Shown here: positions 1,069-62,375 of the stretch, one piece after another
How the letters are laid out: every line of letters begins with the position of its first letter
Numbering within the stretch: the stretch's first letter is position 1
The notes under the pieces: generated by a model
Seen by the model: only the letters and a program-made list of their open reading frames with translations
Database searches by the model: none
What the model was told of the DNA's origin: nothing
Translations under genes and position numbers: made by a program
From: an uncultured Verrucomicrobiota bacterium
GTDB taxonomy: Bacteria > Verrucomicrobiota > Kiritimatiellia > JAAZAB01
Reading direction: 5' to 3'
DNA: 64,000 nucleotides
NCBI GenBank assembly: GCA_964630555.1
Contig: CAZVVD010000002.1
Location: 1,334 to 65,333, forward strand

Positions 1069-1596
1069 TCACATCCCGCGGCTCTGGATCAGGCGGGTCA
1101 GCTCCTGCTGGAAGGCCTGCAAGTCCGCCGGGCTGGGGCGGTAGCCTTTCTGGCCGACGTTCAGCCCCAGGCGCCCGAACTGGTCGAGGGCCCAGCTGGC
1201 GGAGGTGCCGTCACTGAAGCGCACCGAGCCGCTGACCAGGGCGCCGGGTTTAAGCACCCGGTCGATTTCCACCGTGACCTTGGTTCCGGGCGGCGGTCCT
1301 TCCCCCGGCGCGAGCGCCTCGCCCTCCAGGGGCTCTTCCTCCTCCGGCAGGGCGGCGTCCTCGTCCGGGAGCGCCGTTTCCTTGGCCGGGGGCTTCTCCA
1401 GCTTGAGATCCCGGAGGGGCTTGGGCGGTTCCTTTTCCTTCAGGGCGATTCCCAGATCGAGAACCAGGAAGCGGACGTCCATGAAGGTCAGCGTCAGGCC
1501 GCATTCGTCCCGCAGGCGTTTCTGGATTTCGGACAAGCCGCAGCCTTCGGCCACCCACTGCCTGACTTTTGCTTTCTGCTCGTCGGTGAGTTGCAT
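1069..1596 (-). CDS. hypothetical protein
   Basis: ORF; chosen start MQLTDEQKAKVRQW (ATG at 1596); no recognisable family; acidic/proline-rich linker. Confidence 0.5.
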   Translation of the reverse strand: MQLTDEQKAKVRQWVAEGCGLSEIQKRLRDECGLTLTFMDVRFLVLDLGIALKEKEPPKPLRDLKLEKPPAKETALPDEDAALPEEEEPLEGEALAPGEGPPPGTKVTVEIDRVLKPGALVSGSVRFSDGTSASWALDQFGRLGLNVGQKGYRPSPADLQAFQQELTRLIQSRGM

Positions 1597-1775
1597 GGTT
1601 GTATTCCGGATTCCTGGGGGTTGGCGGATCCTGTTGGATAGCGTCAGTCTAGCGCGGGCAAACCGGCAGGTCAACCCTTGGCGTTACACCCTTGGCGTTA
1701 CAGAGCCAGCATTGGTTGGCCTCCTGCCGCCGTGTGCGGCAGGGTACAAGCCATAACACGAATGCTGTCGACCCG

Positions 1776-2114
1776 TTACCGCACCAGCGCGGCCAGGGCG
1801 GCGTCGACGGTGTCGAAGACCTGGAAAATGGAAGCAAAGCCGGAAATCTCGAACACCTCCTTGACCGTGCCGCTCAGCCCGCACAGCACCAGGGCGCCGC
1901 CGGCGCTCTTGATTTTTTTATAAGCGCCCAGGATGCTGCGCAGGCCGGCGCTGGATACGTAGTCCAGTCCGCTCATGTCCAGCGCGACCTTCAGGCCGCC
2001 ATCCCGGATCAGGCTGTCGAAGGCGCCTTCGAATTCCGTGGCCATCAGGGCGTCCATGCGTCCCCGGACCGCGACCAGCAGGCCCTGATCCTTGCGTTGG
2101 GTTTGGATATCCAT
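1776..2114 (-). CDS. STAS-domain anti-sigma factor antagonist (SpoIIAA-like)
   Basis: 112 aa; conserved DYVSSAGL motif with phosphorylatable Ser; 15 nt downstream of the preceding STAS gene. Confidence 0.8.
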   Translation of the reverse strand: MDIQTQRKDQGLLVAVRGRMDALMATEFEGAFDSLIRDGGLKVALDMSGLDYVSSAGLRSILGAYKKIKSAGGALVLCGLSGTVKEVFEISGFASIFQVFDTVDAALAALVR

Positions 2115-2129
2115 GTCGTCTCCTGGGGG

Positions 2130-2459
2130 TTACAGCGCCGCGAGGAAATCGTCCAGGCCGGCGATCTTGAAGAGCTGGGTCACTTCCGGCCGGGCCTTGA
2201 CCACGGCGAAGTTGCCCCGGCGCACCTGCTTGGCCGCGCCCAGGCAGATGCGGAAAAAGGCGGAGCTGACGAAGTCCACGGCCTGGAGGTCGAACACGGC
2301 GCGCAGGGGCTTGCCGAGCCCTCCCGGCTCTTCGGCCGCCGCCCTGGCCAGGGCGGCGGCGACCGCGTCGGCCTCGGCGGCGCTTTGGGCGCTGTCCATG
2401 CTGCCGGAGAAAACGAAGGTCACGGTGTGCGCGGCGGCGTCATAGCTGGAGGTCATCAT
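2130..2459 (-). CDS. STAS-domain protein (anti-sigma factor antagonist family)
   Basis: 109 aa; VDFVSSAFFRI motif; clear paralogue of the N-terminal domain of the downstream Acs ORF. Confidence 0.75.
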   Translation of the reverse strand: MMTSSYDAAAHTVTFVFSGSMDSAQSAAEADAVAAALARAAAEEPGGLGKPLRAVFDLQAVDFVSSAFFRICLGAAKQVRRGNFAVVKARPEVTQLFKIAGLDDFLAAL

Positions 2460-2600
2460 AAGGCGGTCCCTTCACGCTGTACATCCGAGGAGCCTGTGTT
2501 CGCTGTTCAGGACGGTTGAGTTCCAGAGGGTTTCCCTTTCTATACCGGTGTTATTCGTTGGCCATCCCCGCACGCTGAACCCCGAACGCCGCGCTGCGCG

Positions 2601-4910
2601 CTATTCCTCTTCCCCGCTGAGCCGGGCCAGGACATTGAAATCTTCCAGCGTGGTCAAGTCGCCGGTGACCTCGGTGCCGGCCGCCAGCTGTTTGAGCAGG
2701 CGGCGCATGATCTTGCCGGAGCGGGTTTTGGGAAGGGCCTGGGCGAAGCGGATTTCATCCGGCTTGGCGACCGCGCCCAGTTCGTTGCCGACCCGCTTGC
2801 GGAGCTCGTCCCGCAGGGCGGGGCTGGCCTGCTGTCCCGTCCGGAGGGTCACGAAGACCACCACGGCAAAGCCCTTGGTGTCGTCGGGCCGCCCCACCGC
2901 CGCGGCTTCGGCGACCGCCGGGTGGCCGACCAGGGCGCTTTCCACTTCCGCCGTCCCGATGCGGTGCCCGGAGACGTTGAGCACATCGTCGATGCGCCCG
3001 ACGATCCAGAAGTAGCCGTCCGCGTCGCGGCGGGCGCCGTCGCCGGTCAGGTAGTTGCCGGGCGCATCTTTCCAGTAGGTCCAGGCAAACCGGTCGGGAT
3101 CGCCCCAGACTCCCCGCAGCATGCTGGGCCAGGGCCGGCGGATGACGAGCTTGCCGCCCGCGTTGTCGGGCACGGGCTGGCCGCGCTCGTCGATGACGTC
3201 CGGGAGCACGCCCGGCAGGGGCAATCCGGCGGACCCCGCTTTGGCCGGCACGGCGCCGGGAAAGGTGGAGATCATGATACTGCCGGTTTCCGTTTGCCAC
3301 CAGGTGTCCACGATCGGGCAGCGGCCGCCGCCGATATGCTCGTGGTACCAGAGCCAGGCCTGGGGGTTGATCGGCTCGCCCACCGTGCCCAGCAGGCGCA
3401 GGGACCCAAGGTCGTGTTTTTTGGGCCAGGCGTCGCCCCACTGCATGAAGGCCCGGATGGCGGTGGGCGCGGTGTAGAACAGGGTGATCTTCCGCCGGGC
3501 GATGATGTCCCAGAAGCGGTCCGGGCCGGGGAAATTCGGGGCGCCCTCGTAGATGAACACGGTGGCGCCGTTGGCCAGGGGGCCGTAGACGACGTAGCTA
3601 TGGCCCGTGATCCAGCCGATATCCGCCGTGCACCAGAAAATATCGCTGTCGCGGAGGTCGAAGATCAGCTGGTGGGTCAGCTTGGCGCCCAGCAGGTAGC
3701 CCGCGGTGCTGTGGAAAATGCCCTTGGGCTTGCCGGTGGATCCGCTGGTGTAGAGAATGAACAGGACGTCCTCGCTCTCCATGGACTCGGGCGGGCAGAT
3801 CGCCTCCGCCTGGGCCAGCTCCTCGTGCCACCAGAGGTCGCGTCCGGCGCGCATCGGCGTGTCGCCGCCGGCGCGGCGGAAGACGATGACCTTATCCACG
3901 CTGGCGCCCAGCCGCTGGCCGTCGGCGTTCTTGAGCTCCAGGGCTTCGTCCACGCTGGCCTTCAGCGGGACGCGGCTCCCGCGGCGGAACCCGCAGTCGG
4001 CCGTGATGACCAGCCTGGCCGCACAGTCGCGGATGCGTTCGGCGACGGCCTGGGCGCTGAACCCGCCGAAGACCACCGAGTGGATCGCCCCGATGCGGGC
4101 GCAGGCCAGCATGGCGATCACGGCCTCCGGGATCATCGGCAGGTAGATGATCGCGCGCTCGCCCCGGGCGAGGCCGTGGCGCTTCAGCACGTTGGCGAAC
4201 CGGCAGACCTCGGCGTGCAGCTGCCGGTAGGTGAGCGTCCGTTCCTCGCCGGGTCGGTCGGGTGCGTAGGGTTCGCCTTCCCAGATCAGGGCGAGCCGGT
4301 CGGCCGCGGGGGTGTCCAGGTGCCGGTCCAGGCAGTTGGCGCAGGCGTTGAGCCGCCCGCCGCGGAACCATTTGGCGTCCGGCAGGTTCCACTCGCAGAC
4401 CGATTCCCAGGGCTTGAGCCAGGCCAGGTGCTGCCGCGCCTGGTCGGCCCAGAAAGACTCGGGGTCGTTCAGTGACGCGCGGTAAAGCTCCCGGTAGGCA
4501 TCCGGCGAGTTGATGCGGGCGGCGCCGGCGAAAGCGGGCGGGACGGGGAAGACCCGGCCGTCCCGGGCATGGCACTCGATGTTGGCGCCGGCATCCGCCA
4601 GTAATTGCTCCAATCCCGAGGTGCGGATGAGCTCCTTGACGAAGGGATTGGGCTTGACCATGCGGAAGTGGCCGGGCCGGACCTTTTTGGCCGTGGTCAG
4701 CACGATGCGGATGAAGACCGAGGAGAGGAAGTCAACCTTTTCGAGGTCGAAGACGATCGTGAACGTGTCCGGCAGCTTGCCTCCGTCGGCGCCGGCGCGC
4801 AGCTTGGCCTCCAGGTCCTTGGCGAGGGCCGCGCAAGAGGCGCTGTTCAGGTCGCCGCGGAAGCGGCAGGTCATCTGCCGGGCCGCTGTGTCGAGGGTGC
4901 AATCGAGCAT
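2601..4910 (-). CDS. acs: acetyl-CoA synthetase with N-terminal STAS domain fusion
   Basis: 769-aa continuous ORF. Residues from approximately 130 onward are canonical Acs ([12 protein letters not shown]-loop, [32 protein letters not shown]). The N-terminal approximately 125 aa are a STAS domain ([13 protein letters not shown]...) paralogous to ORF 2130-2459. There is no in-frame ATG between the two domains. Confidence 0.85.
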
Positions 4911-4916
4911 GGGAGC

Positions 4917-6398
4917 TCAGTAGTTCCGGTTGTATTCCGCGAGGATGTCAGGGAGCCCGCGGGCCTCGTCGAGGAACCGCTCCTTTGCAAACGCCTGCCA
5001 GCGCTCGTTGACGCGCCGGCGGCAGATGCGTTTGACGTTCAGCAGGTGGCGAGCCGTGAGGTTGGCGCCGGCGTCCGCCCGGCCGCCCGGGCCGAAGCCC
5101 GGCAGGAACGAGGTCTTGAGCCGGTTGAGGATTCCGCCCATCGCCCCCAGCGTCACCGGGGTGTTGACCAGGATGGCGCCGGCCTTGAGGCAGGTTGCAA
5201 AGGTCCGGATGGCCTCCTCGTCGTTGGCGTAGATCCCGGCGATGCGGCCGGCCCCGGGCAGGGAATTCAGCTCGACGCACAGGTTGACGGCGGCCTCGAA
5301 GGTGGGTCGGACATACAAGGTCAGCACGGGCGCCAGCTTGGCGCCCGCCAGGGGATGCGCGTCCCCCGGGCCGGCCTGCCGGGCCACCAGCAGGCGCGTG
5401 CCGGCCGGCGCGGCGATCCCGGCCATCTTCGCCAGCGCTTCTGCGGACTGGCCGATGCCCTCCGGCCGCAGCGCGCCCTCGTCCTCCTCCTGGAACAGGA
5501 CGGCGGCCAGCTTCGCGGCGTCCGCCGCGTCCAGGAAATGGGCGCCCTGGCCTTGCAGCTCGCGGGCGACTGCCGCGGCGATTTTTTCCTCCGCCACCAC
5601 GGACTGCTCACTGGCGAAGAAGACGCCGTGGTCGAAGGTCTTCGAGCGCGCGATCTCCCGGATCGCGAAAGGGAGGTCGGCGCTGGCGTCGAGCAGGACC
5701 GGGACGTTGTCGGGCGTGGAAACGATGGCGGGCGTGCCCAGGCCGGCGGCCGCCCCGGCCCGGTCCGGGCGGCCCATGGCCACGATCAGGGCCAGGCCCG
5801 GCTGGCTCATGATGGCATGGTCCATTTCGCGCGAGGATTCGCCCAGGCACTGGAGGCAGTCCTCGGGCGCCCCGGCCGCCAGGGCCGCCTCCCCGCACAC
5901 CCGCACGGCCTCGGCGCAGCAGCGCAGCGCCCGGGATGGGGGGCTCACCAGCAGGGGGTTGCGGGTCTTCAGGGCCACCAGGATCATGAAGAGGACCGTG
6001 GAGGTCGGGCTCGGCAGGGGGGCCTTGAAGAAAACGGGCCCGATGGGCTCGGCGATTTCGGTCAGGCCGGCGGCCTCGTCGCGGCCGATCACGCCGACCG
6101 TCGGCTCGTGCCGGAGGGTCTCGTGGACGCACTGGGTGGCGAACACGTTTTTCAGGACCTTGTCCTGCCAGACGCCGAGCCCGGATTCCTCGCAGGCCAG
6201 TTTGGCCAGGCGCACGCGGGCGTCGAACCCGGCATGGCAGGCGCGCTCGACGATCCGGTCCACCTGCTGCTGGTTGAGCTGGTGAAAGACGGCGGCGGCC
6301 ATAGCCGCCTTGTCGAGGAGTTCCTTGGCCCGGAAGTGATCCTTGGAGAGCACCGTGCTCTCGCCGAAGACGGCCATCCGATGTCCTGAAACGGCCAT
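4917..6398 (-). CDS. CoA-acylating (acetylating) aldehyde dehydrogenase, AdhE N-terminal domain / EutE-PduP family
   Basis: Matches the AdhE ALDH domain over its length (MAVxG..., ...KTRNPLLVSP..., catalytic Cys region FASEQS). Stop is 6 nt upstream of the acs ATG (translational coupling). Start chosen at ATG 6398 (MAVSGHRMAVFGE); the longer ORF start would overlap the 6472 palindrome. Confidence 0.75.
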   Translation of the reverse strand: MAVSGHRMAVFGESTVLSKDHFRAKELLDKAAMAAAVFHQLNQQQVDRIVERACHAGFDARVRLAKLACEESGLGVWQDKVLKNVFATQCVHETLRHEPTVGVIGRDEAAGLTEIAEPIGPVFFKAPLPSPTSTVLFMILVALKTRNPLLVSPPSRALRCCAEAVRVCGEAALAAGAPEDCLQCLGESSREMDHAIMSQPGLALIVAMGRPDRAGAAAGLGTPAIVSTPDNVPVLLDASADLPFAIREIARSKTFDHGVFFASEQSVVAEEKIAAAVARELQGQGAHFLDAADAAKLAAVLFQEEDEGALRPEGIGQSAEALAKMAGIAAPAGTRLLVARQAGPGDAHPLAGAKLAPVLTLYVRPTFEAAVNLCVELNSLPGAGRIAGIYANDEEAIRTFATCLKAGAILVNTPVTLGAMGGILNRLKTSFLPGFGPGGRADAGANLTARHLLNVKRICRRRVNERWQAFAKERFLDEARGLPDILAEYNRNY

Positions 6399-6471
6399 AA
6401 CCTGCCCTTCCCGTTGATGTCGCTTTCGCAAAAAGTCAGCCGCTGAACCACCTTCCGTATGTTCGCACCTG

Positions 6472-6818
6472 AATATTGCACGATGATCGTGCAATATTCA
6501 CTTTTGCCTAAGCGGGCATTGCCCGCTGGCAAAAGACGTGAAGTTTTGCAGATAACCTATCCGGTTATCTGCAAAACTAACGTGGTTTCCGCTGCCTGCG
6601 GATCCGCTTATGGCGGAAAACCCCGTTTGGCCGCGTTTTCGCGGCCATCATCCCGTGACCACGTTGGCACGTGGAACGTGACTCACGTGGCGGCCCTTCG
6701 GGTGAATTTTGCGCCAGTTCGGCGCAAAATTCAGGTCGCAAAAAACAAAGGAAGTATGATACGGCCGGCAGGGCGGCGTCAACAGGAAAAACCGGCCGCC
6801 GTTGCATGCGGCGGCCGG
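6472..6818. repeat. cluster of six perfect palindromes/hairpins in the divergent intergenic region
   Basis: Read directly: AATATTGCACGAT-G-ATCGTGCAATATT (6472-6498); CTTTTGCC..AGCGGGCA-TTG-CCCGCT..GGCAAAAG (6502-6536); AGTTTTGCAGATAACC-N5-GGTTATCTGCAAAACT (6542-6578); GGCCGCG-TTTT-CGCGGCC (6629-6646); GAATTTTGCGCC-N5-GGCGCAAAATTC (6704-6732); CCGGCCGCCG-TTGCATG-CGGCGGCCGG (6793-6818). TTTTGC/GCAAAA recurs at the cores. Confidence 0.6.
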
Positions 6819-6838
6819 GTTTGCTACCTTCGGCCTCG

Positions 6839-9377
6839 CATGCGCTACCTGTTCTACAAGCGCGAGATTTCCTTCCAGCGCCCGGACTCACCCCTGGCCC
6901 AGCCGCCCGAGCGCTGGGACGCTTTTTTCGCCGAAATCGTCCGCCGCGGGTTCAACGGGTTCGTGATCTATTCAACCTATCATCCGTTCCAGTTCATCCT
7001 CGACTACCGGGGATTCCCCGCCGCCGCCGAGGCTTCCCCCGCCGGCCGGCGCCGGACGCGGGAAAGACTCAACCGGGTTCTCGCGCTGGCGCACCGCCGC
7101 GGGCTGACCACCTTTCTCCAGCACTATGTCGGGCACTTCACCCCCGCCCTGGGACGCCGTCTCGGCCTCGGCCTGCGCGAGTCCGAGGCGACCCGCCTGG
7201 CGGGCTTCGAGCACCCCCTGATCCGGAACTACCTGCGCTATGGCTACCGCGCGATTTTCAGGCAGTGTCCCGACCTGGACGGACTGTACTTCAACTACGA
7301 AAGCTGCGGCGCCAACGCCGGCCTCGTCCTCGACACCGCCATCCGCGAGGCCAACCGAATGGCCCGGCACCCCGTGTTCCTGCACCGGCTCTGGGGCTTC
7401 AGCGTGCCCCGGCTGATGCGCCGGCTGGTGGACGCCTACCGCGGGCTTTCGCTCGTCAGCCACAAGATCTCGGACACCAAGGATACGTATTTCTACCCGT
7501 CCGCCGACACGCGTGTCCGGGAGTGGAAGCGGCATCTGCCGGGCGCGCCCTTCCTGTTCGAGGTCGGCCCCTGCCACAACTGCGCCGCCAACCTGGCGCG
7601 GACCTTGTGGAGCGACTACGATTTCGTGCGGGATCTCCTCGACGACGCGGCCAGGAAAGGCTGTGACGGCTTCTCGTTCCACCAGGTCAATGACGCCGTG
7701 GCGGCGGACACCCCCCTCGGACGGCTGAACGTCCTGCACCTGGAGGCCATGACCGATTTTATCCGCGGCGTCAGGAAAACCCCGCGTCAACAGGCGGCCG
7801 CCCTGGCGGCGGCGACCGGCAGTCGCGGACGGAACGCCGCCCGGCTCTACCGGGCGATCACCGCCGCCAGTCGGCCCGTGATCCTCGCGCATCAGCAGTT
7901 CTGCCTGGACTCCGCCTTCGACGGCTGGCTCAATCCCGGCCGGCACTCGCTGACCCAGGAGCCGTTCTTTTACTACCCGGCCACGGAACTCAACGACCAG
8001 ACCCGCCTGTCCTGGTCGAGCGTGCGCACGGACACTTCCTGGCTGCAGAAGACGGAACGGAACAACGTCACGCCGCCCCGCTACACCCAGTACATCCTTG
8101 ACTACGTCAACCCGCGCCGCCCGCGGGCGCTCCTGCCGCCCCCGGCCATCGCCGCCGAAATCGCCCGCTGCTGCAACACCGCGGCCCGCGCGCTCCGGGG
8201 TTATCGGGACGCGCCGGGCGCCGTGCGGCGCGCCGAGATCGAACCGTACATCCGGGCGCATGGCGCCTCCGGCCTGCACGCGGCCCACGAGATCCGGGCG
8301 GCGATCGAGACGTATGCTCTTTACTTTGCGCCGTCGCCGGCGGCGTGCCTCCGGCATATCGAGCGGGCGCTCGGGCGCCTGCGGCGGGACCGGCAGGCGC
8401 CCGCCGTCAGGCTGCCGGGGAACCTGAAACCGTGGTATGCCGGTATGCCGGCCCGGGCGGCGATCGAAAAACTCCTGCGCCTGCGGCAGTTCGTGGCTGG
8501 CGGCCGGTTCCGGCCGGACGCCTTCCGCACCTTCGTGCGGTCCCGCGCGGAATACAACGAGATCCGGCGCACGGCCCGCGCCTTCCGCCTCCTGCGCGGC
8601 CCGGTGCTCGCTGCGGCCGCCCGGCAGCTGCAAGCATCCCTGCGGCTTGCCGATGAGGCCGTTGGCCTCGCGCGCGGAACGCCGCAGGAGACGCCCTGCG
8701 CGGCGTGGCGCGATTTCGTGCGGTTGGAGCTGGATCGGATGCGCCCGCCGGAGACGGACTGTCCGCGGCGCGGGCCGTCCGGCGCCCTGCGGCTGTATCA
8801 CGACGACTGCTTCCGCACCGGCGAGGACCATCTCGATGATTTTCTCGGCTTCTTTGAGCCGCAGGACTACACATACCGCGCCGACCTGTGGTTCTCGGTT
8901 GGCCAGGACGGCAACGGGATCACCGTGACGCTCGAGGAGCGCGGCGTGGACCCGAAGGCGCGCCGGGCGCGCTGGCGCGAATTTGCGCGCGCCTCGGACC
9001 TGACCTACGTCATGCGGCTGTATTTTGACGTCGGGAACGACGCCCGCGAGGTGCAAAGCTACCTGGTCCTGCCCCTCGGCGCCCGCGCCTACCGAACCGG
9101 CTTTTCGATCGAGGGGGAGCGCGACCTCCTGCACCGCCCGCTGGCGGCTCTCGACGCGCGCGGCCGGACCGCTTACCGCGAACGGGCCGACGGCTATTCC
9201 CTGGCGTTCCGCATTCCGTTTGCCGAACTGGGGGTGGGGCGGGCGCGGGGCGCGTGGGGCTTCAACCTCACGGCCAACCCTTCGATCCAAAGGAACCGGC
9301 AGTACACCTGGTCCGCGCAGTACGACTCGGGCTGCGGGAATCCCTATCTCTTCGGCAAACTCGGCTTTCAGCAATGA
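6839..9377 (+). CDS. large hypothetical protein, possible glycoside-hydrolase-like TIM-barrel with C-terminal CBM9/DOMON-like domain
   Basis: Long ORF with GC3-rich coding bias. Start placed at ATG 6839 (MRYLFYKREISF) because the upstream in-frame extension is packed with perfect hairpins. An alternative ATG at 6756 has an AAAGGAAG RBS. Function is inferred only from weak motif resemblance. Confidence 0.55.
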
Positions 9378-11004: not shown

Positions 11005-12129
11005 CTATGTCTGATCAGGCGCGTTGAATGAAATGTTCAGGCGGTAGCGGGTGCCCTTCAGTTGCCCGCTCTTCTTCAAGGCTCCATTGGCCGCCAGTTC
11101 CGCGAGATCGCGGGTGGCCGTCGCGCGCGATGTTTTCGTGATGCGGATATATTTTTCCGCGCTGAGCCCACCGACAAACCCGTCCGGGCCTTCCAGGAAA
11201 AGACGCGTGATGACTTTCTTCTGCCGCTCGTTGAATACCCCCCGGTGCCGGTCGTAAAATTTTGCTTTCGCGATCAGGAATTCGATCCGGCTCACCGTGT
11301 GCGCCTGCGCTTCCAACACGGTCTCAGCAAAATACACCAGCCAGTCGGTTATCTCGTTGTCACGGTTGACCCGTTCGAGCGCGGCATAGTACGCCGGCTT
11401 GCTGCGTTCGATGGTCTGAGCCAAGGCGATCAGGGTAGGTTGACCCAGGCACTGCGCCAGGGCTTTTTCCGCGAGCGCCCGGCCGATCCGTCCGTTGCCG
11501 TCCTCGAAGGGATGGATGCTGACGAAGTAAAGATGAGCGATTCCCGCCCGCGCGAGCGCGGCGACTGGTTTCGCTCCTCCAGGCGCGGAATCGTTGAACC
11601 AGTGGACGAACCGGTCCATTTCAAGCTGCACCCGGCCGGAGGGCGGTGCCTCGAAATGGATGGTGGGCTCGTGAATCGGACCGGAGATCACTTGCATGGG
11701 TTCATCATGGGTTCGGTAACCGTCCGTCGCCGTAAGGTCGCGGCGCCCTTTGACCAGGGCGGCATACCATGCAAAGAGCGCGCCGTGGGTCAGCGCTTCG
11801 CCATAGGTCGAGTAAAGGTTCACCATCATTTCCGCGAGGCCCTGCTCGGCGGCGGGAACCCGGCGGTGATCGGCCTGCAGGCCAAACTGCCTGCGAATGG
11901 ACGACTGCAGGCTGTCCCGGTCCAGGTATTCGCCCTCGATCTCAGCGGTCTTGAGCGCTTCGTCGCTGATCAAATCGATGGTCAAGGCCTCCTTGTCTCC
12001 CTGCGCCAGGTGTTTGACCGCCCCGCACAACTCGCCCGCCAGGCGCTGAAAACGGCTCTCCAGCGCTGGGAGCGCTGTCAGTTTATACCTGAAATTGGGC
12101 CAATCAGACCGCTGCCAGTTCCAAGTCAT
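11005..12129 (-). CDS. fic: Fic family protein (Fic/DOC adenylyltransferase-type with C-terminal wHTH)
   Basis: Canonical FIC motif HPFEDGNGRIGR; 374 aa; gene GC is clearly lower than its surroundings. Confidence 0.85.
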   Translation of the reverse strand: MTWNWQRSDWPNFRYKLTALPALESRFQRLAGELCGAVKHLAQGDKEALTIDLISDEALKTAEIEGEYLDRDSLQSSIRRQFGLQADHRRVPAAEQGLAEMMVNLYSTYGEALTHGALFAWYAALVKGRRDLTATDGYRTHDEPMQVISGPIHEPTIHFEAPPSGRVQLEMDRFVHWFNDSAPGGAKPVAALARAGIAHLYFVSIHPFEDGNGRIGRALAEKALAQCLGQPTLIALAQTIERSKPAYYAALERVNRDNEITDWLVYFAETVLEAQAHTVSRIEFLIAKAKFYDRHRGVFNERQKKVITRLFLEGPDGFVGGLSAEKYIRITKTSRATATRDLAELAANGALKKSGQLKGTRYRLNISFNAPDQT

Positions 12130-12148
12130 GAGTTATATCCCCCTTTTT

Positions 12149-34474: not shown

Positions 34475-35905
34475 TCACCCCTTGACGCAGACCAGCGGGA
34501 CCAGGCGGGCCACCGGCCGCGCCAGCCGCGCGCGCACCGCGGCGTCCACGACCGCCTCGACGTCCTTGTAGGCGCCGGGCGCCTCCTCGGCCGCGCCCCG
34601 CAGGGAGCGGGTGCGCACCAGGATGCGCCGCTGCGCCAGGTTCTCAATCACGTCCCGGCCCTGCCACTGCCGCGTCGCCTGGCTCCGGCTCAGCCGGCGC
34701 CCGGCGCCGTGGCAGGCGGAGCTGAAGGAGACGGAGGCGTCCGCGCCCAGCCCCGCCAGGATGTAGGAGGACGTCCCCATGCTGCCTCCGACGAGGACAG
34801 GCTGGCCGATCGCCCGCAGGTCCGGCGGCAGCTCCGGGTGGCCGGGCCCGAACGCCCGCGTGGCCCCCTTGCGGTGCACGAACAGCTCCTTTTCCACGCC
34901 GTTGACGACGTGCTTCTCCAGCGAGCAGGTGTTGTGGGAGACGTCGTAGAGCAGGGGCAGGGAGAGGCCGTCGAACAGCCGGCCGAAGACCTCGCGGACC
35001 AGGCGCGTGAGGATCTGCCGGTTGGCGATGGCGCAGTTGCAGGCGGCGCGCATGGCGCCAAGGTAGGCCTGGCCTTCCGCGGAATTGAGCGGCGCGCAGG
35101 CCAGCTCGCGATCGGGCAGGGCGATCCCGTGGGCCCGGGCGGCCTGGAGCATGGAGCGCGAGTATTCCGTGGCCACCTGGTGGCCCAGCCCGCGCGAGCC
35201 GCAGTGGATGCTGACGACGATCTCGTTCACGCGCAGGCCGAAAACGCGGGCGGCCTCGGCGTCCAGGATTTCGACGACCTGCTGGACCTCCAGGTAATGG
35301 TTGCCGGAGCCGAGCGTGCCCATCTCGTCCTGCTGGCGCCGGCGGGCCTGGTCGGAAATGTTCTCCGGGCAGGCCCCCAACACCTCGCCGCGGTGCTCGA
35401 TGCGGTCGAGGTCGGCCTGGACGCCGTGGCCCGCCTGGACCGCCCAGCGCGCGCCGCCGGAGAGCATGGCGTCCATTTCCCGGCGGGAGAGATGCAGGCT
35501 CCCGGTGCTGCCGACGCCGGCGGGGATGGCGGCGAACAGGGCGTCGGCCAGGCGCTCCTGGCGGGGACGGAGCTCGTCGGCGGGCAGGCCGGTCAGGAGG
35601 CTGCGGACGCCGCAGGAGATGTCGAAGCCGACGCCGCCAGCGGAGACCACGCCGCCGCGGTTGGCATCGAAGGCGGCGACGCCGCCGATGGGGAAGCCGT
35701 AGCCCCAGTGGGCGTCGGGCATGGCATAGGCCGAGGTCTCGATGCCGGGCAGGGTGGCCACGTGGCGGATCTGCTCCAGGACCTTCGCGTCCATCCCGCG
35801 GATCAGCTCCTCGGAGCCGTAGAGCACGGCCGGGACCCGCATCGGGCCGCCGGGCGGCAGCAGCCACCGGCATTCGGATTCGCGTTGGAACAGGGCGGTA
35901 TCCAT
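34475..35905 (-). CDS. rtcB: RNA-splicing ligase RtcB (3'-phosphate/5'-OH RNA ligase)
   Basis: Conserved RtcB motifs (MPDAHWGYGFPIGGV, HCGSRGLGHQV, HNTC, catalytic His in SACHGAGR region). Confidence 0.85.
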   Translation of the reverse strand: MDTALFQRESECRWLLPPGGPMRVPAVLYGSEELIRGMDAKVLEQIRHVATLPGIETSAYAMPDAHWGYGFPIGGVAAFDANRGGVVSAGGVGFDISCGVRSLLTGLPADELRPRQERLADALFAAIPAGVGSTGSLHLSRREMDAMLSGGARWAVQAGHGVQADLDRIEHRGEVLGACPENISDQARRRQQDEMGTLGSGNHYLEVQQVVEILDAEAARVFGLRVNEIVVSIHCGSRGLGHQVATEYSRSMLQAARAHGIALPDRELACAPLNSAEGQAYLGAMRAACNCAIANRQILTRLVREVFGRLFDGLSLPLLYDVSHNTCSLEKHVVNGVEKELFVHRKGATRAFGPGHPELPPDLRAIGQPVLVGGSMGTSSYILAGLGADASVSFSSACHGAGRRLSRSQATRQWQGRDVIENLAQRRILVRTRSLRGAAEEAPGAYKDVEAVVDAAVRARLARPVARLVPLVCVKG

Positions 35906-36008
35906 GCGGGAACATCTCCGCGAGCGCATTCCATGCTAACACCCCGCCCCGTGGAAGCCAAGCCGTCTTTTCGGAAACGGCGTCCGCCGAACCGGTGCTA
36001 CAAAGAGT

Positions 36009-50556: not shown

Positions 50557-51621
50557 ATGAAGCGATTCGCGTCTTGCGTCCTGGCTCTCATCGTAGCGGC
50601 GCTGGCCGGAGCGGCCTGGGCGGAACAGCCGCTTTCTCTTGAGCTGACCCTGAAAGACGGCTCGCGCATCATCGGGGTTCCCGTTATTGAATCGGTGCCG
50701 GTGGAGACATCCTACGCTAAGATGGACTTGTCCCTGCGGCAGATCGTGGCCCTGGAGATGGGCGCGGATCAGGAAACGGTCACCTTCGACCTACGGAACG
50801 GAGACAGGCTGAAGGGGGTTGTCGCCCTTGAGGCGCTGTCCCTTGAGACGGCGTTCGGGAAGGTGTCGATCAACCTCGGGCACCTGCAGCGCCTGCGCGT
50901 CAGGTCGGCGGGCCGGGCGCTGCCGGGTGGCGAAGGGGCCTTGGCCTTCGGCGGTCTGCACTGGATGGCTTGGCGAACGGCGTTCGAGGTGCAGGGGGAC
51001 AAGTTGGTGGCACTGCCCAAGGCGCGGCCGGGGTTCAACTACGGCCATGACGGCAACGGGCGCTCGTCCTGGCTCGTGAGCAACGTTGGCAATCCGGATT
51101 GGAAGGATTACACCGTGGAGTTCGAGTATTGCATGAGCGGGGTGGATCCGGCGTTCAACCCATGCGGGCTGCCCCTGGACTATAGATCCGGCCAGATCAT
51201 GTTCCATGTCGCCGACGCGAAGGAGAGCTGGAACGAGCGCGGCGCCAGCATGTACACCCTCAGCCTGGGTTGCGACGGCTTCGGTTCTGCCCCCAGGTTC
51301 ATGCGGTGGAGACTCGCTGGTTACTACAACGCGTATTGCCGCGCGCCGGCTGGCTGTAGCGCCTGGCAGAGCGACGACGAGCGGCGGCTGGCGGAGGGCC
51401 AGGGCCTGGAGCTGGATCCTAAGACGGGAAACAAGTTTCGGATTGACGTGTGCGGGACGCGCATCCAGATCTGGGTGGATGGAAGCCAGATCGCGGACGT
51501 GCGGGACGAAAAAATGGCCGAGAGCATCGGGGGTCAGACGCTGGACCACGGCGGCATCGGTTTCAATTGGCAGGCCGAATGCATGGGGTGGATCCGCAAC
51601 CTTTCCGCGAAGCAGTTATAA
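50557..51621 (+). CDS. secreted protein with C-terminal DUF1080 (LamG-like / 3-keto-disaccharide hydrolase-like) domain
   Basis: RBS AGGTGGAGG; signal peptide; C-terminal FRIDVCGTRIQIWVDGSQIADV...GGIGFNWQAECMGWIRNLS pattern typical of DUF1080. Confidence 0.6.
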   Translation: MKRFASCVLALIVAALAGAAWAEQPLSLELTLKDGSRIIGVPVIESVPVETSYAKMDLSLRQIVALEMGADQETVTFDLRNGDRLKGVVALEALSLETAFGKVSINLGHLQRLRVRSAGRALPGGEGALAFGGLHWMAWRTAFEVQGDKLVALPKARPGFNYGHDGNGRSSWLVSNVGNPDWKDYTVEFEYCMSGVDPAFNPCGLPLDYRSGQIMFHVADAKESWNERGASMYTLSLGCDGFGSAPRFMRWRLAGYYNAYCRAPAGCSAWQSDDERRLAEGQGLELDPKTGNKFRIDVCGTRIQIWVDGSQIADVRDEKMAESIGGQTLDHGGIGFNWQAECMGWIRNLSAKQL

Positions 51622-51631
51622 AGGGCACAGC

Positions 51632-53650
51632 GTGCGCAGATTATTTCCAATCCGGGCGGGCAAAAGTCCGGCAGTCGCCGGAGCGCGTTTTGGCCTGCGA
51701 GCCCCATGGACGCTGGTCGTACTGGGGCTGGCGTGTGCCGTCAGCTGCCCGGGGCTTGCCGGCGAGGAGCTCACCGGCGTTCAGCGGCGCGACCGGTTCC
51801 TCGAACAGCGCCGGCAGTACCGGGGAGAAATTCTCGCCAAGCGCGAATGCATGAACGCGGCCGAAGCGCTGGTCCTCATGCAGAACGGGCTGGAATCGAA
51901 CAAGGTCAGCGCGTTCGTCACTCACAGCCTGGCCAGCCGTCCCTACCGCTCGCTGGACACGCCGATCCTTTACCAGGTCCTGGTCCGGGGCCGGGGTCAG
52001 CTGGCCCCCGAAGCCGCCGGCGCCCTGCGCAAGCGGTTGGACGATCACTGGGGCACCAACCTGCCGATGTACGTCAGCCTGGAAACGCCGTTCGATCCCT
52101 GGGACTACAACTTCATCGACCCGCCGACCGAAAACTGCCTGCTCAACGACATCGTCAACCGCCTGCTGGATACCCTGGCCTCCCCGGAACGGGTTTATTC
52201 GGACGGCCATTCCGCGGCCGAGCACCGGGCGTACTGGGAGGATGCGTTTCGCCAGTTCGTGGCCGCGCGGATCACCCACGGGTTCCGCGAGTGGGATTCC
52301 ACCGTCTACCTGCATGTCATCGCCGAGGATGCCATGGCGGTCTACAACTGCCTGCCCGACGGCCCGACCCGCTCGGCGGCGGGCGTGTTCCTGGATGCCA
52401 TCCTGCTTAACGTCGCCCGCACCCTGCGGGGCAAGGTGTGGACGGGGCCCCATAACCGCGTCTATAACCATCCCGGTTATTGCATGCTCAACCTGACCCA
52501 GCACTCCTGGTTCTACTGCATGCGCTGGATTTTCGACACCGACTGGTCCGAGCTGACGCCCGGCGGCTTCCGGCCGAATGATCCCTTCAATGCGGGCCTG
52601 CTGGCCGGCGACTACGTGCCGCCGGCGGCCATCCTGGCCCTGCCGCACCGCGCCGATCGCTACGTGTCGCTCGAAAAAACCGGGCCGCGCCAGCATCCCC
52701 GCGGGATGGGACAGGGCGCGTTTTATCCCGACCGCAACAATGTCTGCCTTTGCCGGGAGGACCGGGAGGACCCGGGGGAGCTGGGCCTGATCTATAACTA
52801 TCTTGGGCCCAGGTTTGCCCTGGGCTCGGCGCAGAACTGGGGCCGCTACGGCGCCGAGTGGCACATGCACTGCATGCCCTGGAACCTGGTGGTGCGCCTG
52901 CCGTCGAACGACGGGATGATCCTCTCGTTCGCCGGGGGGCCGAAGGAAGGCGGCAGCATGGGCGGCTACATGACCTGGGGGCAGAGCGCGGACTGGACGG
53001 CCACGATTTTCCAGCATAAGACCGTCCTGTTTTCCCAGATCCGCGCGGCCGCGCAGGTCCATGTCATGCGGCCCCATCCCAGCGGGTTCCTGGAGCGGCC
53101 GTTCGGGCCCTACTGGGACCTGGCCGGCTTCCGCGAGCCCAAGGCGAAGCGGGCGACCCGCATTTACATTGCCCATAGCTTGGGGCCCCTGACCGAGGAA
53201 AAAGGGTGGGTGCTGGGCGAAACTAACGGCGTCTGCTTCGCGGTCCGGCCCGTGCGCGGCGGCTACAGCTACGAGCCCCAGCCGGACTGGATTCCCGGCC
53301 GGGTCCTGCTCTGCCAGGTCTGGGACGACGTGGTCCTGTTGGAGGTGCAGGAAACGGAGCAGGCCGGCGGTTTCCCGGAGTTCAAGAAGAGGATCCTGGC
53401 GGCGGAATTGCGGAGCGATCCAACCAACGTTGCTTACACCGCCCTCAGCGGCGATCGCTATGTTTTCCGCTGGAAAACCGATGGCCCGCCGAGGGTCAAC
53501 GACACAGTGCCCGACTACGGCGTTCAACGCTTCGACGACCCGTGGATCCGGGCCGAGGCCGGCGCGGGGCGGATCGTCGTCAGCGCGCCCGGGGCCCGCT
53601 GCGAATTGATCGCCACGAATACGATGAATATCCGGAGGATCGAGGAATAG
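51632..53650 (+). CDS. secreted hypothetical protein
   Basis: Long GC3-biased ORF; GTG start chosen just upstream of a signal-like segment WTLVVLGLACAVSCPGLAG; start uncertain. Confidence 0.5.
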   Translation: MRRLFPIRAGKSPAVAGARFGLRAPWTLVVLGLACAVSCPGLAGEELTGVQRRDRFLEQRRQYRGEILAKRECMNAAEALVLMQNGLESNKVSAFVTHSLASRPYRSLDTPILYQVLVRGRGQLAPEAAGALRKRLDDHWGTNLPMYVSLETPFDPWDYNFIDPPTENCLLNDIVNRLLDTLASPERVYSDGHSAAEHRAYWEDAFRQFVAARITHGFREWDSTVYLHVIAEDAMAVYNCLPDGPTRSAAGVFLDAILLNVARTLRGKVWTGPHNRVYNHPGYCMLNLTQHSWFYCMRWIFDTDWSELTPGGFRPNDPFNAGLLAGDYVPPAAILALPHRADRYVSLEKTGPRQHPRGMGQGAFYPDRNNVCLCREDREDPGELGLIYNYLGPRFALGSAQNWGRYGAEWHMHCMPWNLVVRLPSNDGMILSFAGGPKEGGSMGGYMTWGQSADWTATIFQHKTVLFSQIRAAAQVHVMRPHPSGFLERPFGPYWDLAGFREPKAKRATRIYIAHSLGPLTEEKGWVLGETNGVCFAVRPVRGGYSYEPQPDWIPGRVLLCQVWDDVVLLEVQETEQAGGFPEFKKRILAAELRSDPTNVAYTALSGDRYVFRWKTDGPPRVNDTVPDYGVQRFDDPWIRAEAGAGRIVVSAPGARCELIATNTMNIRRIEE

Positions 53651-54813: not shown

Positions 54814-56592
54814 TTGGATGCGTGCCTGTACAGTTTTATACCCTCCGTTCTGGCCGGGAACTACGACCGGCTCGTGGCCGCCTGCCGGGCCCAGGGGATT
54901 GCGCGGGTCGGGCTGCTGGTTTCCGTGACCGGCAAGCTCACCGCCAACCTGGCCGAGCTGCGCGCCCTCAAGGCGCGGCTGGAGGCCGACGGCCTGGGCG
55001 TGTGGGCCGAGGTGTTCGCGGTGGGGCACCCGGCCATCGAGCGCGTCTATGCCCAGTACGGCGATCGGGCAGATGAGCCGATGTTCTATGATGGCGGCGA
55101 GGTCGCCAGCGGCGCGCGGGGATCGCTCCTGCCGCGCGGCTGGCACTATGCCCGCAACGAGTTCGGCAAGCCGGTCTACAACGTCGCCTGCCCGGACGAG
55201 TCCTGGCTGGCGGCGAACCGGAAGATCGCGCGCGACCTGGCCGGCGTGTTCGGGGAAATCTGGTACGACGACGAATTCCGGATGGACGGCGACATGGGGG
55301 GCGGCGCGCCCCACCGCAGCACGGCGGTGTGCTATTGCGACCGCTGCATGCAGGAGCTCTCCGGACGGGCCGGCCGGCCGGTCCGCCCGGCCGACGTGCT
55401 GGCCAGCCAGGAGCTTCATGACCTCTGGACGCGGATGAAGACCGACCGGCTCTCCCGGGCCTGGCAGGCCTTGGCCGGCGCCGCGCGCGAGGCCCGGCCG
55501 GATGTGGTCCTCGGGCTCATGGTCCGCTGGGGCGGGGAGGAGCGGGATGGGCTGGACATCGGCCGGCTGCTGCCCGCCTTCGGCGGCGCGGTGAACCTGC
55601 GCCTGGGCGAAGGCCATTTTTGCCGGCACGAGTACGGGCCGCCGCAGGGCCAGGTGATGGAATACCTGGCCGCAACCTACCACGCCGGCTGGTTCCCGCG
55701 CGAGGTGCCGCTGCTGACGGAGACGACCTACTGCGATCCCCTGCCTCCCGAATGGATCCTGAAGAAGGTTGTGCTCGGCCTGGCCGCCGGCGCCTCGGTC
55801 GTCGCCTATTGCCCCTGCGTCAAGGAACATGTCGAATACCAGGACTTCATCCGCGATCGGCTGGCCGACCTGCGGGCCTGGTCCGACGCCCTGGGGGACA
55901 AGGCGGCCTTGCACCGGCCGATCCATATCCTGCGGTCGCTCTCCGCGGCGCGGGGGGACAAGGACCCCCTCCGTCGCTCGCTCGATCGCCAGTATTTCCC
56001 CCTCTTCAACCTGGCGGGCCTCTGCGCCGTCGTGGTCCGCCGGGGCGGGTGGTGCGACGACGGCGCCTCGGAGGTCGTGGCCGTCACCGGGCGGACCGCG
56101 CTGGATGTCCGGCTCGACGAGTTCACGGGCCGCCAAGTTGTTGTGGACGGGGAGGCCCTGCTGGAGGCCTGCCCGTTCCTGGCGGATATCGGGGTGAGCG
56201 GCGCGGCGGCGGGCGCCGGCGGGCGGGTGACGTTTTCCGGCGCGTATACCGGCGACGGCCTGCTCTATCGCCGGGAGAATATCATTCTCATCCCTTACCT
56301 CTGGCGCGAAGTGTCCCCCGGCCTCATGCCGGAACTGCTGGCCGACATTCGGCGCGTCGTCGGGGCGGGGGTGGCGTCGGCGGTCGTCGAGGGCGGCCTC
56401 GAGGTGATGCCGGTTCATTTCCGTAAATCCGCGCGCGACATCATCCTGCTGGTCAACCTGCGCCACGAGGCCCGCGAGATCGAACTTCGTCTGCCGCCCG
56501 GGCGCGGCCGGCTGCAGACGCTTGCCGGCGCGGCCCTGTCCCCGCGGTTGCGCCTGGAGGCGGACGAGATCCGTCTTCTGGCGGCGGTCTAA
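54814..56592 (+). CDS. hypothetical protein (possible TIM-barrel glycoside-hydrolase-like)
   Basis: ORF with TTG start per ORF track; coding bias consistent; no family recognised. Confidence 0.5.
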   Translation: MDACLYSFIPSVLAGNYDRLVAACRAQGIARVGLLVSVTGKLTANLAELRALKARLEADGLGVWAEVFAVGHPAIERVYAQYGDRADEPMFYDGGEVASGARGSLLPRGWHYARNEFGKPVYNVACPDESWLAANRKIARDLAGVFGEIWYDDEFRMDGDMGGGAPHRSTAVCYCDRCMQELSGRAGRPVRPADVLASQELHDLWTRMKTDRLSRAWQALAGAAREARPDVVLGLMVRWGGEERDGLDIGRLLPAFGGAVNLRLGEGHFCRHEYGPPQGQVMEYLAATYHAGWFPREVPLLTETTYCDPLPPEWILKKVVLGLAAGASVVAYCPCVKEHVEYQDFIRDRLADLRAWSDALGDKAALHRPIHILRSLSAARGDKDPLRRSLDRQYFPLFNLAGLCAVVVRRGGWCDDGASEVVAVTGRTALDVRLDEFTGRQVVVDGEALLEACPFLADIGVSGAAAGAGGRVTFSGAYTGDGLLYRRENIILIPYLWREVSPGLMPELLADIRRVVGAGVASAVVEGGLEVMPVHFRKSARDIILLVNLRHEAREIELRLPPGRGRLQTLAGAALSPRLRLEADEIRLLAAV

Positions 56593-56729
56593 CGGGACTG
56601 CGCCGGGCGGGAGGGGATGGCGGAATATTCCTTTCCGGTTCCGGCCGACTTGACGCCGGAGGGGGAGGGGCGTAGGCTTGCGGTGCAGGTCGGATCTCAG
56701 CGGGGGCGCTGGAACGGAAGGTGGCGGGG

Positions 56730-57191
56730 ATGAAACGGAATCCAATCCTGTGGATCGGGATCGCTGCCGGTATGCTGGCGTGCGTCCTGCCCAGCCGCGG
56801 CGGAGAGCCGGCGGCGTCGCCGTCGCCGGCCAAGGATGCGGCGGCCTTCCAGGCCGCGGACACCAACGCCGATGGCAAGGTCACCTGCGCCGAAATGACC
56901 GCGGCCGCCTGCCGGGAGGCTTTTGCCCGGATCGACCGAAACGGCGACAAGGCCGTCACCCCCGAGGAGTGGGCCGCGGCAGACAAGCGGCCGGGCGCGC
57001 GCGAGCGCTTCGACGCCATCGACCGGAACAAGGACGCCCAGATCACGTTCCTCGAGTTTTCGGAGACCGCCCGCAAGGCGGCCGATCACGACAGGGCTTT
57101 CACAGTGCTGGATAAGAACGCGGACGGAACCCTGTCCCGGGACGAGTATTCGGGGCATCCGCACTTCAAGCTGTTTTCGATTCAGTTCTAA
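56730..57191 (+). CDS. secreted EF-hand calcium-binding protein
   Basis: Signal peptide; four EF-hand loops (DTNADGKVT, DRNGDKAVT, DRNKDAQIT, DKNADGTLS). Confidence 0.7.
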   Translation: MKRNPILWIGIAAGMLACVLPSRGGEPAASPSPAKDAAAFQAADTNADGKVTCAEMTAAACREAFARIDRNGDKAVTPEEWAAADKRPGARERFDAIDRNKDAQITFLEFSETARKAADHDRAFTVLDKNADGTLSRDEYSGHPHFKLFSIQF

Positions 57192-57237
57192 CGGGGCGGC
57201 CCGCCGCGGAGTTTGGGCATCGCCGCAGCGATGCCCA

Positions 57238-57313
57238 TCACGTCTCTGGCGCAATGTGTTGCGCCAGAGTGACCTATTAACAACTTGAAAAGTTGATGAA
57301 TAGGTCAGGCTAG
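57238..57313. repeat. 76-bp double-hairpin element, copy 2
   Basis: Same sequence as 49161-49237 with 2 differences (one C deletion, one C>T); preceded by a terminator-like hairpin GGGCATCGC-C-GCAGCGATGCCC. Confidence 0.55.
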
Positions 57314-57338
57314 AGACCGACCGCCCGCGGGCCGGCTG

Positions 57339-58187: not shown

Positions 58188-58337
58188 ATGCGCACGCTCC
58201 CGGAGTTGGCTTGCCCGGCCCATAGTCTATGCGGTCGGCGGCCTCCTGACAAACGATTTTATCGTTGAACCGCGCGGCGGGCCTGCTACCATCGGAAGCG
58301 GCATTCCAGTTGGGTGCAATTCGGAATAAAGGATACC

Positions 58338-61155: not shown

Positions 61156-61194
61156 GGTCCAAGACAGGCCGGCGCTACAACGGAGATGACATCC

Positions 61195-62373: not shown

Positions 62374-62375
62374 CA

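Follow-up and report, generated by a model that had tools for sequence, protein, structure and literature searches.

A STAS domain fused to acetyl-CoA synthetase in an uncultured Verrucomicrobiota bacterium: a candidate handle for partner-switching-like control

In Anabaena sp. PCC 7120, the glycosyltransferase All4160 has an N-terminal STAS domain whose serine is phosphorylated by RsbW-like kinases, which inhibits the enzyme, and the REC-SpoIIE phosphatase HenR, in a module with Alr3423, reactivates it (Mol Microbiol 2026, PMC13555669). The authors regarded this arrangement as a lineage-specific strategy (PMC13555669). Here we describe a STAS domain at the N-terminus of an acetyl-CoA synthetase (Acs), encoded at 2601-4910 on the minus strand of a 64,000-nucleotide (nt) stretch of contig CAZVVD010000002.1 (GenBank assembly GCA_964630555.1), which comes from an uncultured Verrucomicrobiota bacterium and is called the window below. 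All4160 is the closest documented precedent for this STAS-Acs fusion. Both proteins are enzymes with an N-terminal STAS and a conserved Ser at the SpoIIAA-type acceptor position. RsbW-like kinases and REC-SpoIIE phosphatases occur in both settings, the same REC-SpoIIE architecture lying beside STAS-Acs genes in two related loci (L006 and L010). The output of All4160 is enzyme activity and not a sigma factor, and that of STAS-Acs would be so as well. However, All4160 is a membrane sugar transferase of cyanobacteria, whereas Acs is a cytosolic ligase of central metabolism, and its fusions come from metagenome-assembled genomes (MAGs) labelled as PVC-group phyla. The system described here also has a separate type of STAS with a Ser-x-Phe signature (S-x-F), two free STAS paralogues and a degenerate aldehyde dehydrogenase (ALDH) homologue, the pseudo-ALDH, and neither kinase nor phosphatase genes are present in the window. 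An earlier sequence-only reading of this DNA had described STAS domains as normally standalone or fused to SulP transporters; the documented, phospho-regulated STAS-glycosyltransferase shows that they are not limited to these forms.

Unrestrained Acs drains ATP and CoA, and the AMP-forming enzyme needs post-translational restraint. To our knowledge, lysine acetylation (Pat/AcuA, CobB/AcuC) is the only well-known bacterial brake on Acs. It answers the same need as a STAS handle would, and its target is conserved here: the catalytic, acetylatable Lys733 (codon 2712-2714) and its SGKIMRR motif are invariant in a 60-sequence alignment. Acetylation differs wholly from a STAS handle in its chemistry and in its site, however, and no GNAT or sirtuin gene was found in the cluster or among the window open reading frames (ORFs) scanned with Pfam.

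The 769-amino-acid (aa) ORF is an Acs with an N-terminal STAS, as first read from the sequence. Pfam placed STAS at residues 14-103 (26.1 bits, cut-off 22.6), ACAS_N at 139-193, AMP-binding at 204-601 and AMP-binding_C at 655-733. The NCBIfam acetate--CoA ligase model TIGR02188 scored 961.1 bits against a cut-off of 724.95, with a match that begins at residue 134, and NF001208 scored 997.5 bits against 657. Judged from its sequence, the Acs part is an intact AMP-forming acetate-CoA ligase. The STAS, of the S-x-F subtype, takes up residues 1-105 (4596-4910, minus strand; Pfam, AlphaFold2 (AF2) and Foldseek), with the codons of Ser64 at 4719-4721 and of Phe66 at 4713-4715. When residues 1-108 were modelled alone with AF2, the mean confidence (pLDDT, predicted local distance difference test) was 89.8 and helix 2 started at residue 64, as it also did in the full-length model. 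There, pLDDT was 74-88 in the STAS, 51-58 at residues 100-120 and mostly above 85 in the N-terminal body of Acs, falling toward the C-terminal domain. These models indicate that residues of about 106-125 (4536-4595, minus strand) form a flexible tether of ~20 residues between STAS and Acs.

The fusion is shared by at least 58 protein clusters (full-length search; 759-795 aa, 98-100% query coverage, 60-80% identity) from MAGs labelled Kiritimatiellae/Verrucomicrobiota, Lentisphaerota/Victivallales and Planctomycetota, and their source names go no further than 'acetate--CoA ligase'. Relatives were found by the full-length search and by an exhaustive search of representatives; a word-index search with the 158-aa N-terminus gave no match. 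In a neighbour-joining tree of Acs cores, all of the fused proteins fell on one side of the midpoint root and all of the unfused ones on the opposite side. The lone 'unfused' exception, P0004, is the NCBI call for the closest orthologue (locus L003, 4429-6783); it was annotated from an internal ATG at residue 118 of its ORF, and the upstream part of that ORF encodes a complete STAS. Since public annotation of the closest orthologue omits the STAS, the fusion family is under-counted in annotated databases. The tree places the architecture as ancient within one Acs clade. A different Acs fusion was also seen, unrelated to this one: P0046 (1282 aa) is a tandem double acetyl-CoA synthetase with two sets of ACAS_N, AMP-binding and AMP-binding_C.

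Another possible explanation of the N-terminal segment is that it is an untranslated leader or a mis-assembly and that the real Acs starts internally. The internal NCBI start of P0004 would fit this, as would the acs ATG, which lacks a clear Shine-Dalgarno sequence, and an in-frame TTG at residue 100. However, the full-length ORF is present in 58 independent assemblies and is kept across related assemblies, and the segment has a confident fold. A comparison of the window with L003 gave 19/15/47 differences at codon positions 1/2/3 of the STAS segment, in which 35 synonymous changes fall on the 76 residues that are identical, and the Acs body shows the same pattern (82/65/245). Change in the STAS segment is mostly at third codon positions and, therefore, the segment is translated and selected. 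The sequence-only reading had noted that no in-frame ATG lies between the two parts, and the translation agrees, with none between residues 85 and 258. The only start-like codon at residues 85-200 is the TTG, which encodes a conserved Leu100 (39 of 43 fusions) and has no suitably spaced Shine-Dalgarno sequence. The assemblies, the codon bias, the fold and the context of the TTG effectively refute an artefact, to which we give next to no weight.

The Acs STAS has a close paralogue in the same cluster. It is 42% identical over 107 aa (E about 1e-15) to STAS2, a free S-x-F-type STAS of 109 aa (2130-2459, minus strand; Pfam; Ser66 codon 2262-2264), and both peptides that had been quoted for this pair are present. 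STAS2 and STAS3 are only distantly related (35% over 52 residues), in line with the earlier view of STAS3 as more divergent; STAS3 is a canonical anti-sigma-factor-antagonist-type STAS of 112 aa (1776-2114, minus strand; Ser55 codon 1950-1952). Pfam STAS (PF01740) was above cut-off in all three proteins (31.9 bits for STAS2 and 77 bits for STAS3). TIGR00377, with a cut-off of 53.45, was passed by STAS3 (79.8 bits) and not by STAS2 (38.2 bits), and it was not among the 25 families listed for the Acs STAS. The motif at the acceptor is LSSVFIR in Acs, VSSAFFR in STAS2 and VSSAGLR in STAS3. All three had been described as keeping DxxSSxG, which is correct for the Ser; the Gly that follows the acceptor in canonical DSSGLG/SSAGL-type motifs is found in STAS3 alone (SSAG), with Phe in the other two (SSVF, SSAF).

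An exhaustive phmmer search with the Acs STAS against 1.84 billion representatives returned 195 proteins at E <= 1e-3, nearly all of them 95-115 aa long, and the motif [SA]-S-x-F-[LI]-R was present in 133 of the top 150. A family hidden Markov model (HMM) built from 115 free members gave at least 85 bits for free or Acs-fused domains and at most 55 bits for canonical STAS domains of the same loci, with 112 bits for STAS2 and 47 bits for STAS3. The motif, the phmmer matches and the HMM scores thus place the Acs STAS and STAS2 in one small, distinct S-x-F subfamily. The Ser at the acceptor position is invariant in this subfamily, both in the fused (43/43) and in the free members (115/115). Among the 43 fusion N-termini, F54, S64 and F66 are invariant and R68, D55, G19, F17 and G99 nearly so.

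When a profile of the fusion STAS was compared with the PDB, the best matches were SpoIIAA, TM1442 and other antagonists. Ser64 was aligned to SpoIIAA Ser58, which, by a residue count made from the sequence, we take to be the phosphorylated residue. The AF2 model of residues 1-108 has the fold order b1-b2-a1-b3-a2-b4-a3, and the top Foldseek matches were SpoIIAB-bound SpoIIAA and RsbW-bound RsbV (TM-scores of 0.72-0.75), with TM1442 a further top match and a probability of 1.00 for all three; the STAS of SulP transporters, MlaB and RsbS ranked lower. The domain therefore resembles those of SpoIIAA-SpoIIAB and RsbV-RsbW partner switching in Bacillus in its fold and in its acceptor Ser at the start of helix 2, and STAS3 meets the TIGR00377 cut-off. 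It differs from them in being tethered to an enzyme and in reading [SA]S-x-F-[LI]-R in place of DSSGLG. Also, the equivalent of Asp23 is not conserved in the fused copies, and the window neighbourhood has no anti-sigma or sigma factor.

The rank of the SulP-type domains bears on another reading, in which the STAS would exert allosteric control over Acs by binding a small molecule or carrier (a nucleotide, a CoA thioester or acyl carrier protein), without a partner switch. Some STAS domains do bind nucleotides (Rv1739c) or acyl carrier protein (YchM/DauA), and the S-x-F signature differs from canonical antagonists. As in SulP/SLC26 proteins, the STAS is covalently attached to a non-signalling protein, and in Ruficoccus a free S-x-F gene adjoins a SulP gene. 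However, the transporters carry the STAS at the C-terminus, whereas here it is N-terminal on a soluble enzyme and nearer the antagonist type, with SulP-type STAS well below SpoIIAA and RsbV in the fold search. The data hold no pointer to a ligand, and the ALDH and kinase neighbourhoods described below would be left unexplained. We consider ligand sensing very unlikely.

The first gene of the cluster encodes a homologue of AdhE-type acylating ALDHs (4917-6398, minus strand; counted from the ATG at 6398 it has 493 aa, and the ORF at its longest reaches a TTG at 6494). Its stop is 6 nt before the acs ATG, exactly as the sequence-only reading had it. That reading called the product an acetylating ALDH, which is right as to homology, the best solved relatives being 3K9D (E 4.8e-86) and 5J78 (9.4e-85), followed by AdhE structures at ~1e-82. 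However, the catalytic Cys is lost and the protein is below every NCBIfam equivalog cut-off (TIGR02518, 337.7 bits vs 620.1). A residue-by-residue alignment to 3K9D and 5J78 put Phe261 (codon TTC, 5616-5618) at the catalytic-Cys position; the window protein reads KTFDHGVFFASEQ against KTFDNGTICASEQ, and 3K9D and 5J78 have KTFD[NY]GTICASEQ. The FDNGxxC[AS]SEQ motif has become FDHGVFFASEQ, and four further motifs are lost (ATGG to AMGR, GVGPGN to VSTPDN, EKL[AS]P to AKLAP, and LGCG to PGFG). Because the catalytic Cys and the cofactor motifs are gone, activation of acetaldehyde by the product of this gene is unlikely, and the protein appears to be a pseudoenzyme.

This degeneration is not confined to the window. 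From 12 Cys-retaining relatives, both structures included, 105 invariant columns were defined, and 27 of these are changed in the window protein, 26 in L003, 37 in L005 and 35 in the second ALDH of each of L013 and L016; leave-one-out controls had 0-11 changed. Each of the five degenerate copies shares a gene cluster and a strand with a STAS-Acs gene and directly precedes an S-x-F STAS domain, free or fused. The differences at codon positions 1/2/3 (122/89/222 for the window vs L003 and 52/30/127 for L005 vs L013) show that the degenerate ALDHs are under purifying selection and are not decaying pseudogenes. At L013, a full-length Cys-retaining AdhE (4868-7960, 863 aa) with a canonical STAS gene alongside is divergent from the cluster of pseudo-ALDH, STAS and STAS-Acs and, thus, active and dead ALDH domains coexist at that locus.

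The only comparable case that we found for the pseudo-ALDH is in GRM1 loci, whose second acylating ALDH has another residue in place of the catalytic Cys and has been suggested to act as a scaffold or regulator (Axen et al. 2014, PMC4207490). L016 likewise pairs an intact with a degenerate ALDH in tandem. In contrast to GRM1, the Cys is replaced here by Phe, Leu or Gln with a far wider decay of motifs, the partner would be a STAS domain, and neither the window nor any fetched locus has shell genes. No BMC Pfam family (BMC-H, BMC-P) was found among the window ORFs scanned, and tblastn with PduA had no match in the window or in 40 loci. A microcompartment context was ruled out by these searches.

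The gene neighbourhoods were compared in 28 loci from GTDB genomes, found through the fusion N-terminus with an alignment of 9 sequences as query, and in 10 more obtained by exact protein look-up. In 12 of 23 cases (scan loci and the window), a free S-x-F gene lies 9-36 nt downstream of an AdhE-type ALDH gene, in MAGs that include Cloacimonadota, Thermoguttaceae, Omnitrophota, UBP9, KSB1, Victivallales and Kiritimatiellae. In a further two of the 23 (the window and L003), STAS-Acs stands between the ALDH gene and the free STAS gene. Seven free S-x-F genes, sampled independently through protein look-up, included two behind an ALDH gene. The other free S-x-F genes are in unrelated contexts (DUF2062/AsmA, SulP, GNAT), and the contexts of the fusion genes vary, often with the gene alone, for example between folP and fumarase or beside an SDF or AI-2E transporter.

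Some neighbours of the S-x-F genes were observed more than once. Proteins of ~435 aa are encoded near the ALDH/S-x-F pair in two phyla (L010 2965-4269 and L014 2207-3517); their N-terminal domain is a canonical STAS, and the remaining ~320 residues are uncharacterised. L036 has a 407-aa relative. A second context for free S-x-F genes is DUF2062 with AsmA/DUF748 (L018 2211-4410, L019 3355-5578 and L032 4211-7297), and in L032 it also holds phospholipid synthesis genes. The AsmA/DUF748 gene of the window (61156-62373) is far from the cluster.

When the flanking ORFs were clustered, a recurrent family emerged that Pfam assigns to HATPase_c_2 (RsbW-like) kinases and SpoIIE phosphatases. The sensor part of the phosphatases is REC (L006, L010) or dCache-HAMP, and in L020 and L021 phosphatase and kinase are fused. 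In L006 and L010, STAS-Acs is followed by a STAS, a HATPase_c_2 kinase and a REC-SpoIIE phosphatase. Such kinases and phosphatases are also encoded within a few kb of orthologous fusions or free S-x-F genes in L005, L014, L020, L021, L025, L027, L032, L037 and L039. In L032, the genes for an S-x-F STAS, a kinase and a HAMP-SpoIIE phosphatase form an operon, and L039 has the order kinase, ALDH, S-x-F STAS, NMT1 and dCache-HAMP-SpoIIE. The STAS next to the kinase in L005, L006 and L010 has Ser-x-Phe too (LSSIFFR). A further locus, L029 (3729-10177), has a non-ribosomal peptide synthetase (NRPS) module between an RsbW-like kinase, a SpoIIE phosphatase and a canonical STAS. Its 992-aa AMP-binding protein was considered as a second STAS-ligase and ruled out, being an A-T-C module instead; the locus is possibly another enzyme-linked partner-switching module.

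These linked components could also belong to a transcriptional circuit. In that case, the tethered STAS would be an ordinary anti-anti-sigma factor that sequesters an RsbW-like anti-sigma factor; the abundance or conformation of Acs would report acetate metabolism to a sigma factor, and the activity of Acs itself would not be regulated. Antagonists co-transcribed with regulated genes are a known design, as in the sigB operon, and both the SpoIIAA/RsbV-like domain and the canonical partner-switching components linked in relatives agree with it. However, no sigma factor gene was found beside the kinase genes wherever called genes or Pfam cover the flanks (in the remaining loci the screen of the flanks covered ALDH, kinase, phosphatase and STAS). 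The sole sigma factors seen, of the ECF type, are in L031 and L036, loci in which no kinase gene was found. Making an antagonist by joining it covalently, 1:1, to an enzyme of high expression would also be costly, and the documented STAS-enzyme fusion regulates the enzyme itself (PMC13555669). Transcriptional feedback is, in our estimate, rather improbable.

A more serious competitor is a phosphorylation-independent adaptor, in which S-x-F STAS domains hold ALDH-like proteins and Acs together in a metabolon or in a storage or inhibition complex, and the partner-switching genes near relatives in other genomes regulate something else. The adjacency of ALDH-like gene and S-x-F STAS is the most conserved one, and it is found without a kinase within ~6-7 kb on either side in L033 and also in the kinase-free window. 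The Asp used for kinase docking is relaxed in the fused domains. Purifying selection on a Cys-less ALDH fits a scaffold role, which has been proposed for Cys-less acylating ALDH paralogues in GRM1 microcompartment loci (PMC4207490). However, the acceptor Ser is invariant in every fused and free member, an S-x-F STAS heads the kinase-phosphatase operon of L032, and the nearest folds are those of kinase-bound antagonists. We regard the adaptor as unlikely on balance.

The reading that we favour, tentatively and at somewhat less than an even chance, is a partner-switching-like module that acts directly on Acs. The STAS domain would be the regulatory handle that places Acs under this module. Whether Ser64 is phosphorylated would depend on two enzymes encoded outside the window, a serine kinase of the RsbW type and a phosphatase of the SpoIIE type. 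The tethered STAS would compete with free STAS2 and STAS3, its state would decide which partner it binds, and the choice of partner would decide whether Acs is active or held in a complex. The likeliest partner would be the ALDH-like protein encoded directly upstream, because the adjacency of ALDH-like gene and S-x-F STAS is the conserved core of the neighbourhood across phyla; the ALDH copy of this lineage would have become a non-catalytic receptor or scaffold. That adjacency is kept in the window with the STAS as the N-terminus of Acs, which suggests that an ALDH-STAS pair existed first and that Acs later joined it. What the module would control, after translation, is flux at the acetate/acetyl-CoA node and not a sigma factor. 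The sequence-only reading had proposed that acetate or acetaldehyde activation is gated by partner switching; such gating is plausible given the kinases and phosphatases near relatives, the invariant Ser and the fold, but the acetaldehyde part is unlikely.

A bolder form of this proposal is a sigma-free switch. The dead AdhE-type ALDH would be the receptor for which STAS2 and the Acs STAS compete, a distant RsbW-like kinase would set the winner by phosphorylating serine, and the entire Acs enzyme would be captured or released accordingly. In other phyla, S-x-F STAS proteins would gate intact acetaldehyde dehydrogenases, with extracellular signals entering through dCache-SpoIIE phosphatases. 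We think it doubtful that all of this holds together.

Several observations weigh against a phospho-switch on Acs. As the sequence-only reading had reported, the window has no RsbW-like kinase and no PP2C/SpoIIE phosphatase, nor does it have a sigma factor (Pfam and tblastn over 64 kb). Many fusions are alone in unrelated contexts with no kinase near (L001, L004, L008 and L034-L036). SpoIIAA docks SpoIIAB through Asp23, and the Asp of the corresponding G-x-x-D is kept in 92 of 115 free members vs 12 of 43 fused ones; the tethered STAS may no longer bind a kinase in the classical way, to judge by this residue. The Phe two residues after the Ser is invariant in the S-x-F subfamily, replacing the usual Gly. 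An invariant Ser at a helix N-cap can be structural, and the conserved Thr52 of MlaB is at the acceptor position and is not known to be a phosphorylation site. The proposed binding of the STAS to the pseudo-ALDH is read from gene order. The full-length AF2 model did not resolve the placement or docking of the STAS on Acs, with its linker of low confidence.

On the minus strand of the window, the cluster is made up of four genes in the order ALDH-like gene, STAS-Acs, STAS2, STAS3, probably transcribed as one or two units. The gap between acs and STAS2 is 141 nt; no terminator-like site was found on the minus strand between them, and a promoter-like site at 2455-2483 (minus strand), found by a consensus scan, may be a separate start for STAS2-STAS3. 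STAS2 and STAS3 are 15 nt apart, with a GGAG ribosome-binding site in the spacer. The operon has an untranslated leader of ~350 nt, a putative control region (6470-6822, minus strand). In it are three perfect inverted repeats (6703-6733, 6542-6578 and 6470-6500), a promoter-like site (6753-6782) and, at 6788-6822, a hairpin that resembles a terminator and belongs to the preceding transcription unit. When the whole window was scanned, the half-site TGAATWTTGCNC had 4 matches vs ~1 expected, all in the leader; it was not found upstream of the closest orthologue (L003). A riboswitch or other known RNA in the leader was ruled out, as Rfam at gathering thresholds was empty across the whole window.

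Around the cluster, a 201-aa ORF (1069-1674, minus strand; probably 175 aa from an internal ATG) lies ~100 nt beyond STAS3. Neither Pfam nor NCBIfam gave a match for it, no related locus has a homologue, and it is probably outside the system. A 976-aa ORF (6447-9377, plus strand) is divergent from the operon and, by the longest-ORF call, overlaps the leader. This and three other long plus-strand ORFs (51137-53650, 54814-56592 and 62240-64000) have no Pfam match, with coding-like GC content at third codon positions of 0.80-0.89. The window also has a DUF4172-Fic protein (11005-12132, minus strand), an RtcB RNA ligase (34475-35935, minus strand) without an obvious RtcA or RtcR adjoining, and an EF-hand protein beside a tandem universal stress protein (56676-58226). 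Most of what remains consists of housekeeping genes and of genes for glycan degradation (GH2, GH4, C10 peptidase, GDSL).

The sequence-only reading did not recognise STAS-Acs as a described arrangement, and in the library that we searched no paper connects Acs or ALDH with STAS or partner switching. Neither enzymes nor metabolism come up in a review of STAS-only proteins. What is new lies in the class of enzyme, in the S-x-F subfamily, which is itself undescribed, in the ALDH linkage and in the pseudo-ALDH. Phospho-control of an enzyme through a STAS has a precedent, the cyanobacterial glycosyltransferase (2026), the only documented STAS-fused enzyme under such control that we found. The finding rests wholly on sequence and context, and it is directly testable. 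There is also a practical side for annotation: pipelines name the fusions plain 'acetate--CoA ligase' and clip the STAS in at least one case, and the dead ALDH would be called active, which would mislead the metabolic reconstruction of these MAGs.

These results should be of interest to those who study bacterial signalling and the metabolism of uncultured anaerobes. If true, a STAS handle on Acs would be a second, independent brake on the enzyme, and signalling of the partner-switching type would reach from gene expression into central carbon metabolism. S-x-F STAS proteins are found behind AdhE-type ALDHs in MAGs of Cloacimonadota, Omnitrophota, KSB1, UBP9, Planctomycetota and Kiritimatiellae, often accompanied by phosphatases with dCache sensors. 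To judge by this pattern, the ethanol/acetate branch point of uncultured anaerobes may be under the control of an unexplored signalling route. Should the sigma-free switch prove true, anaerobic fermentation would be widely controlled after translation, by a switch so far unrecognised, at its acetaldehyde/acetyl-CoA/acetate branch point.

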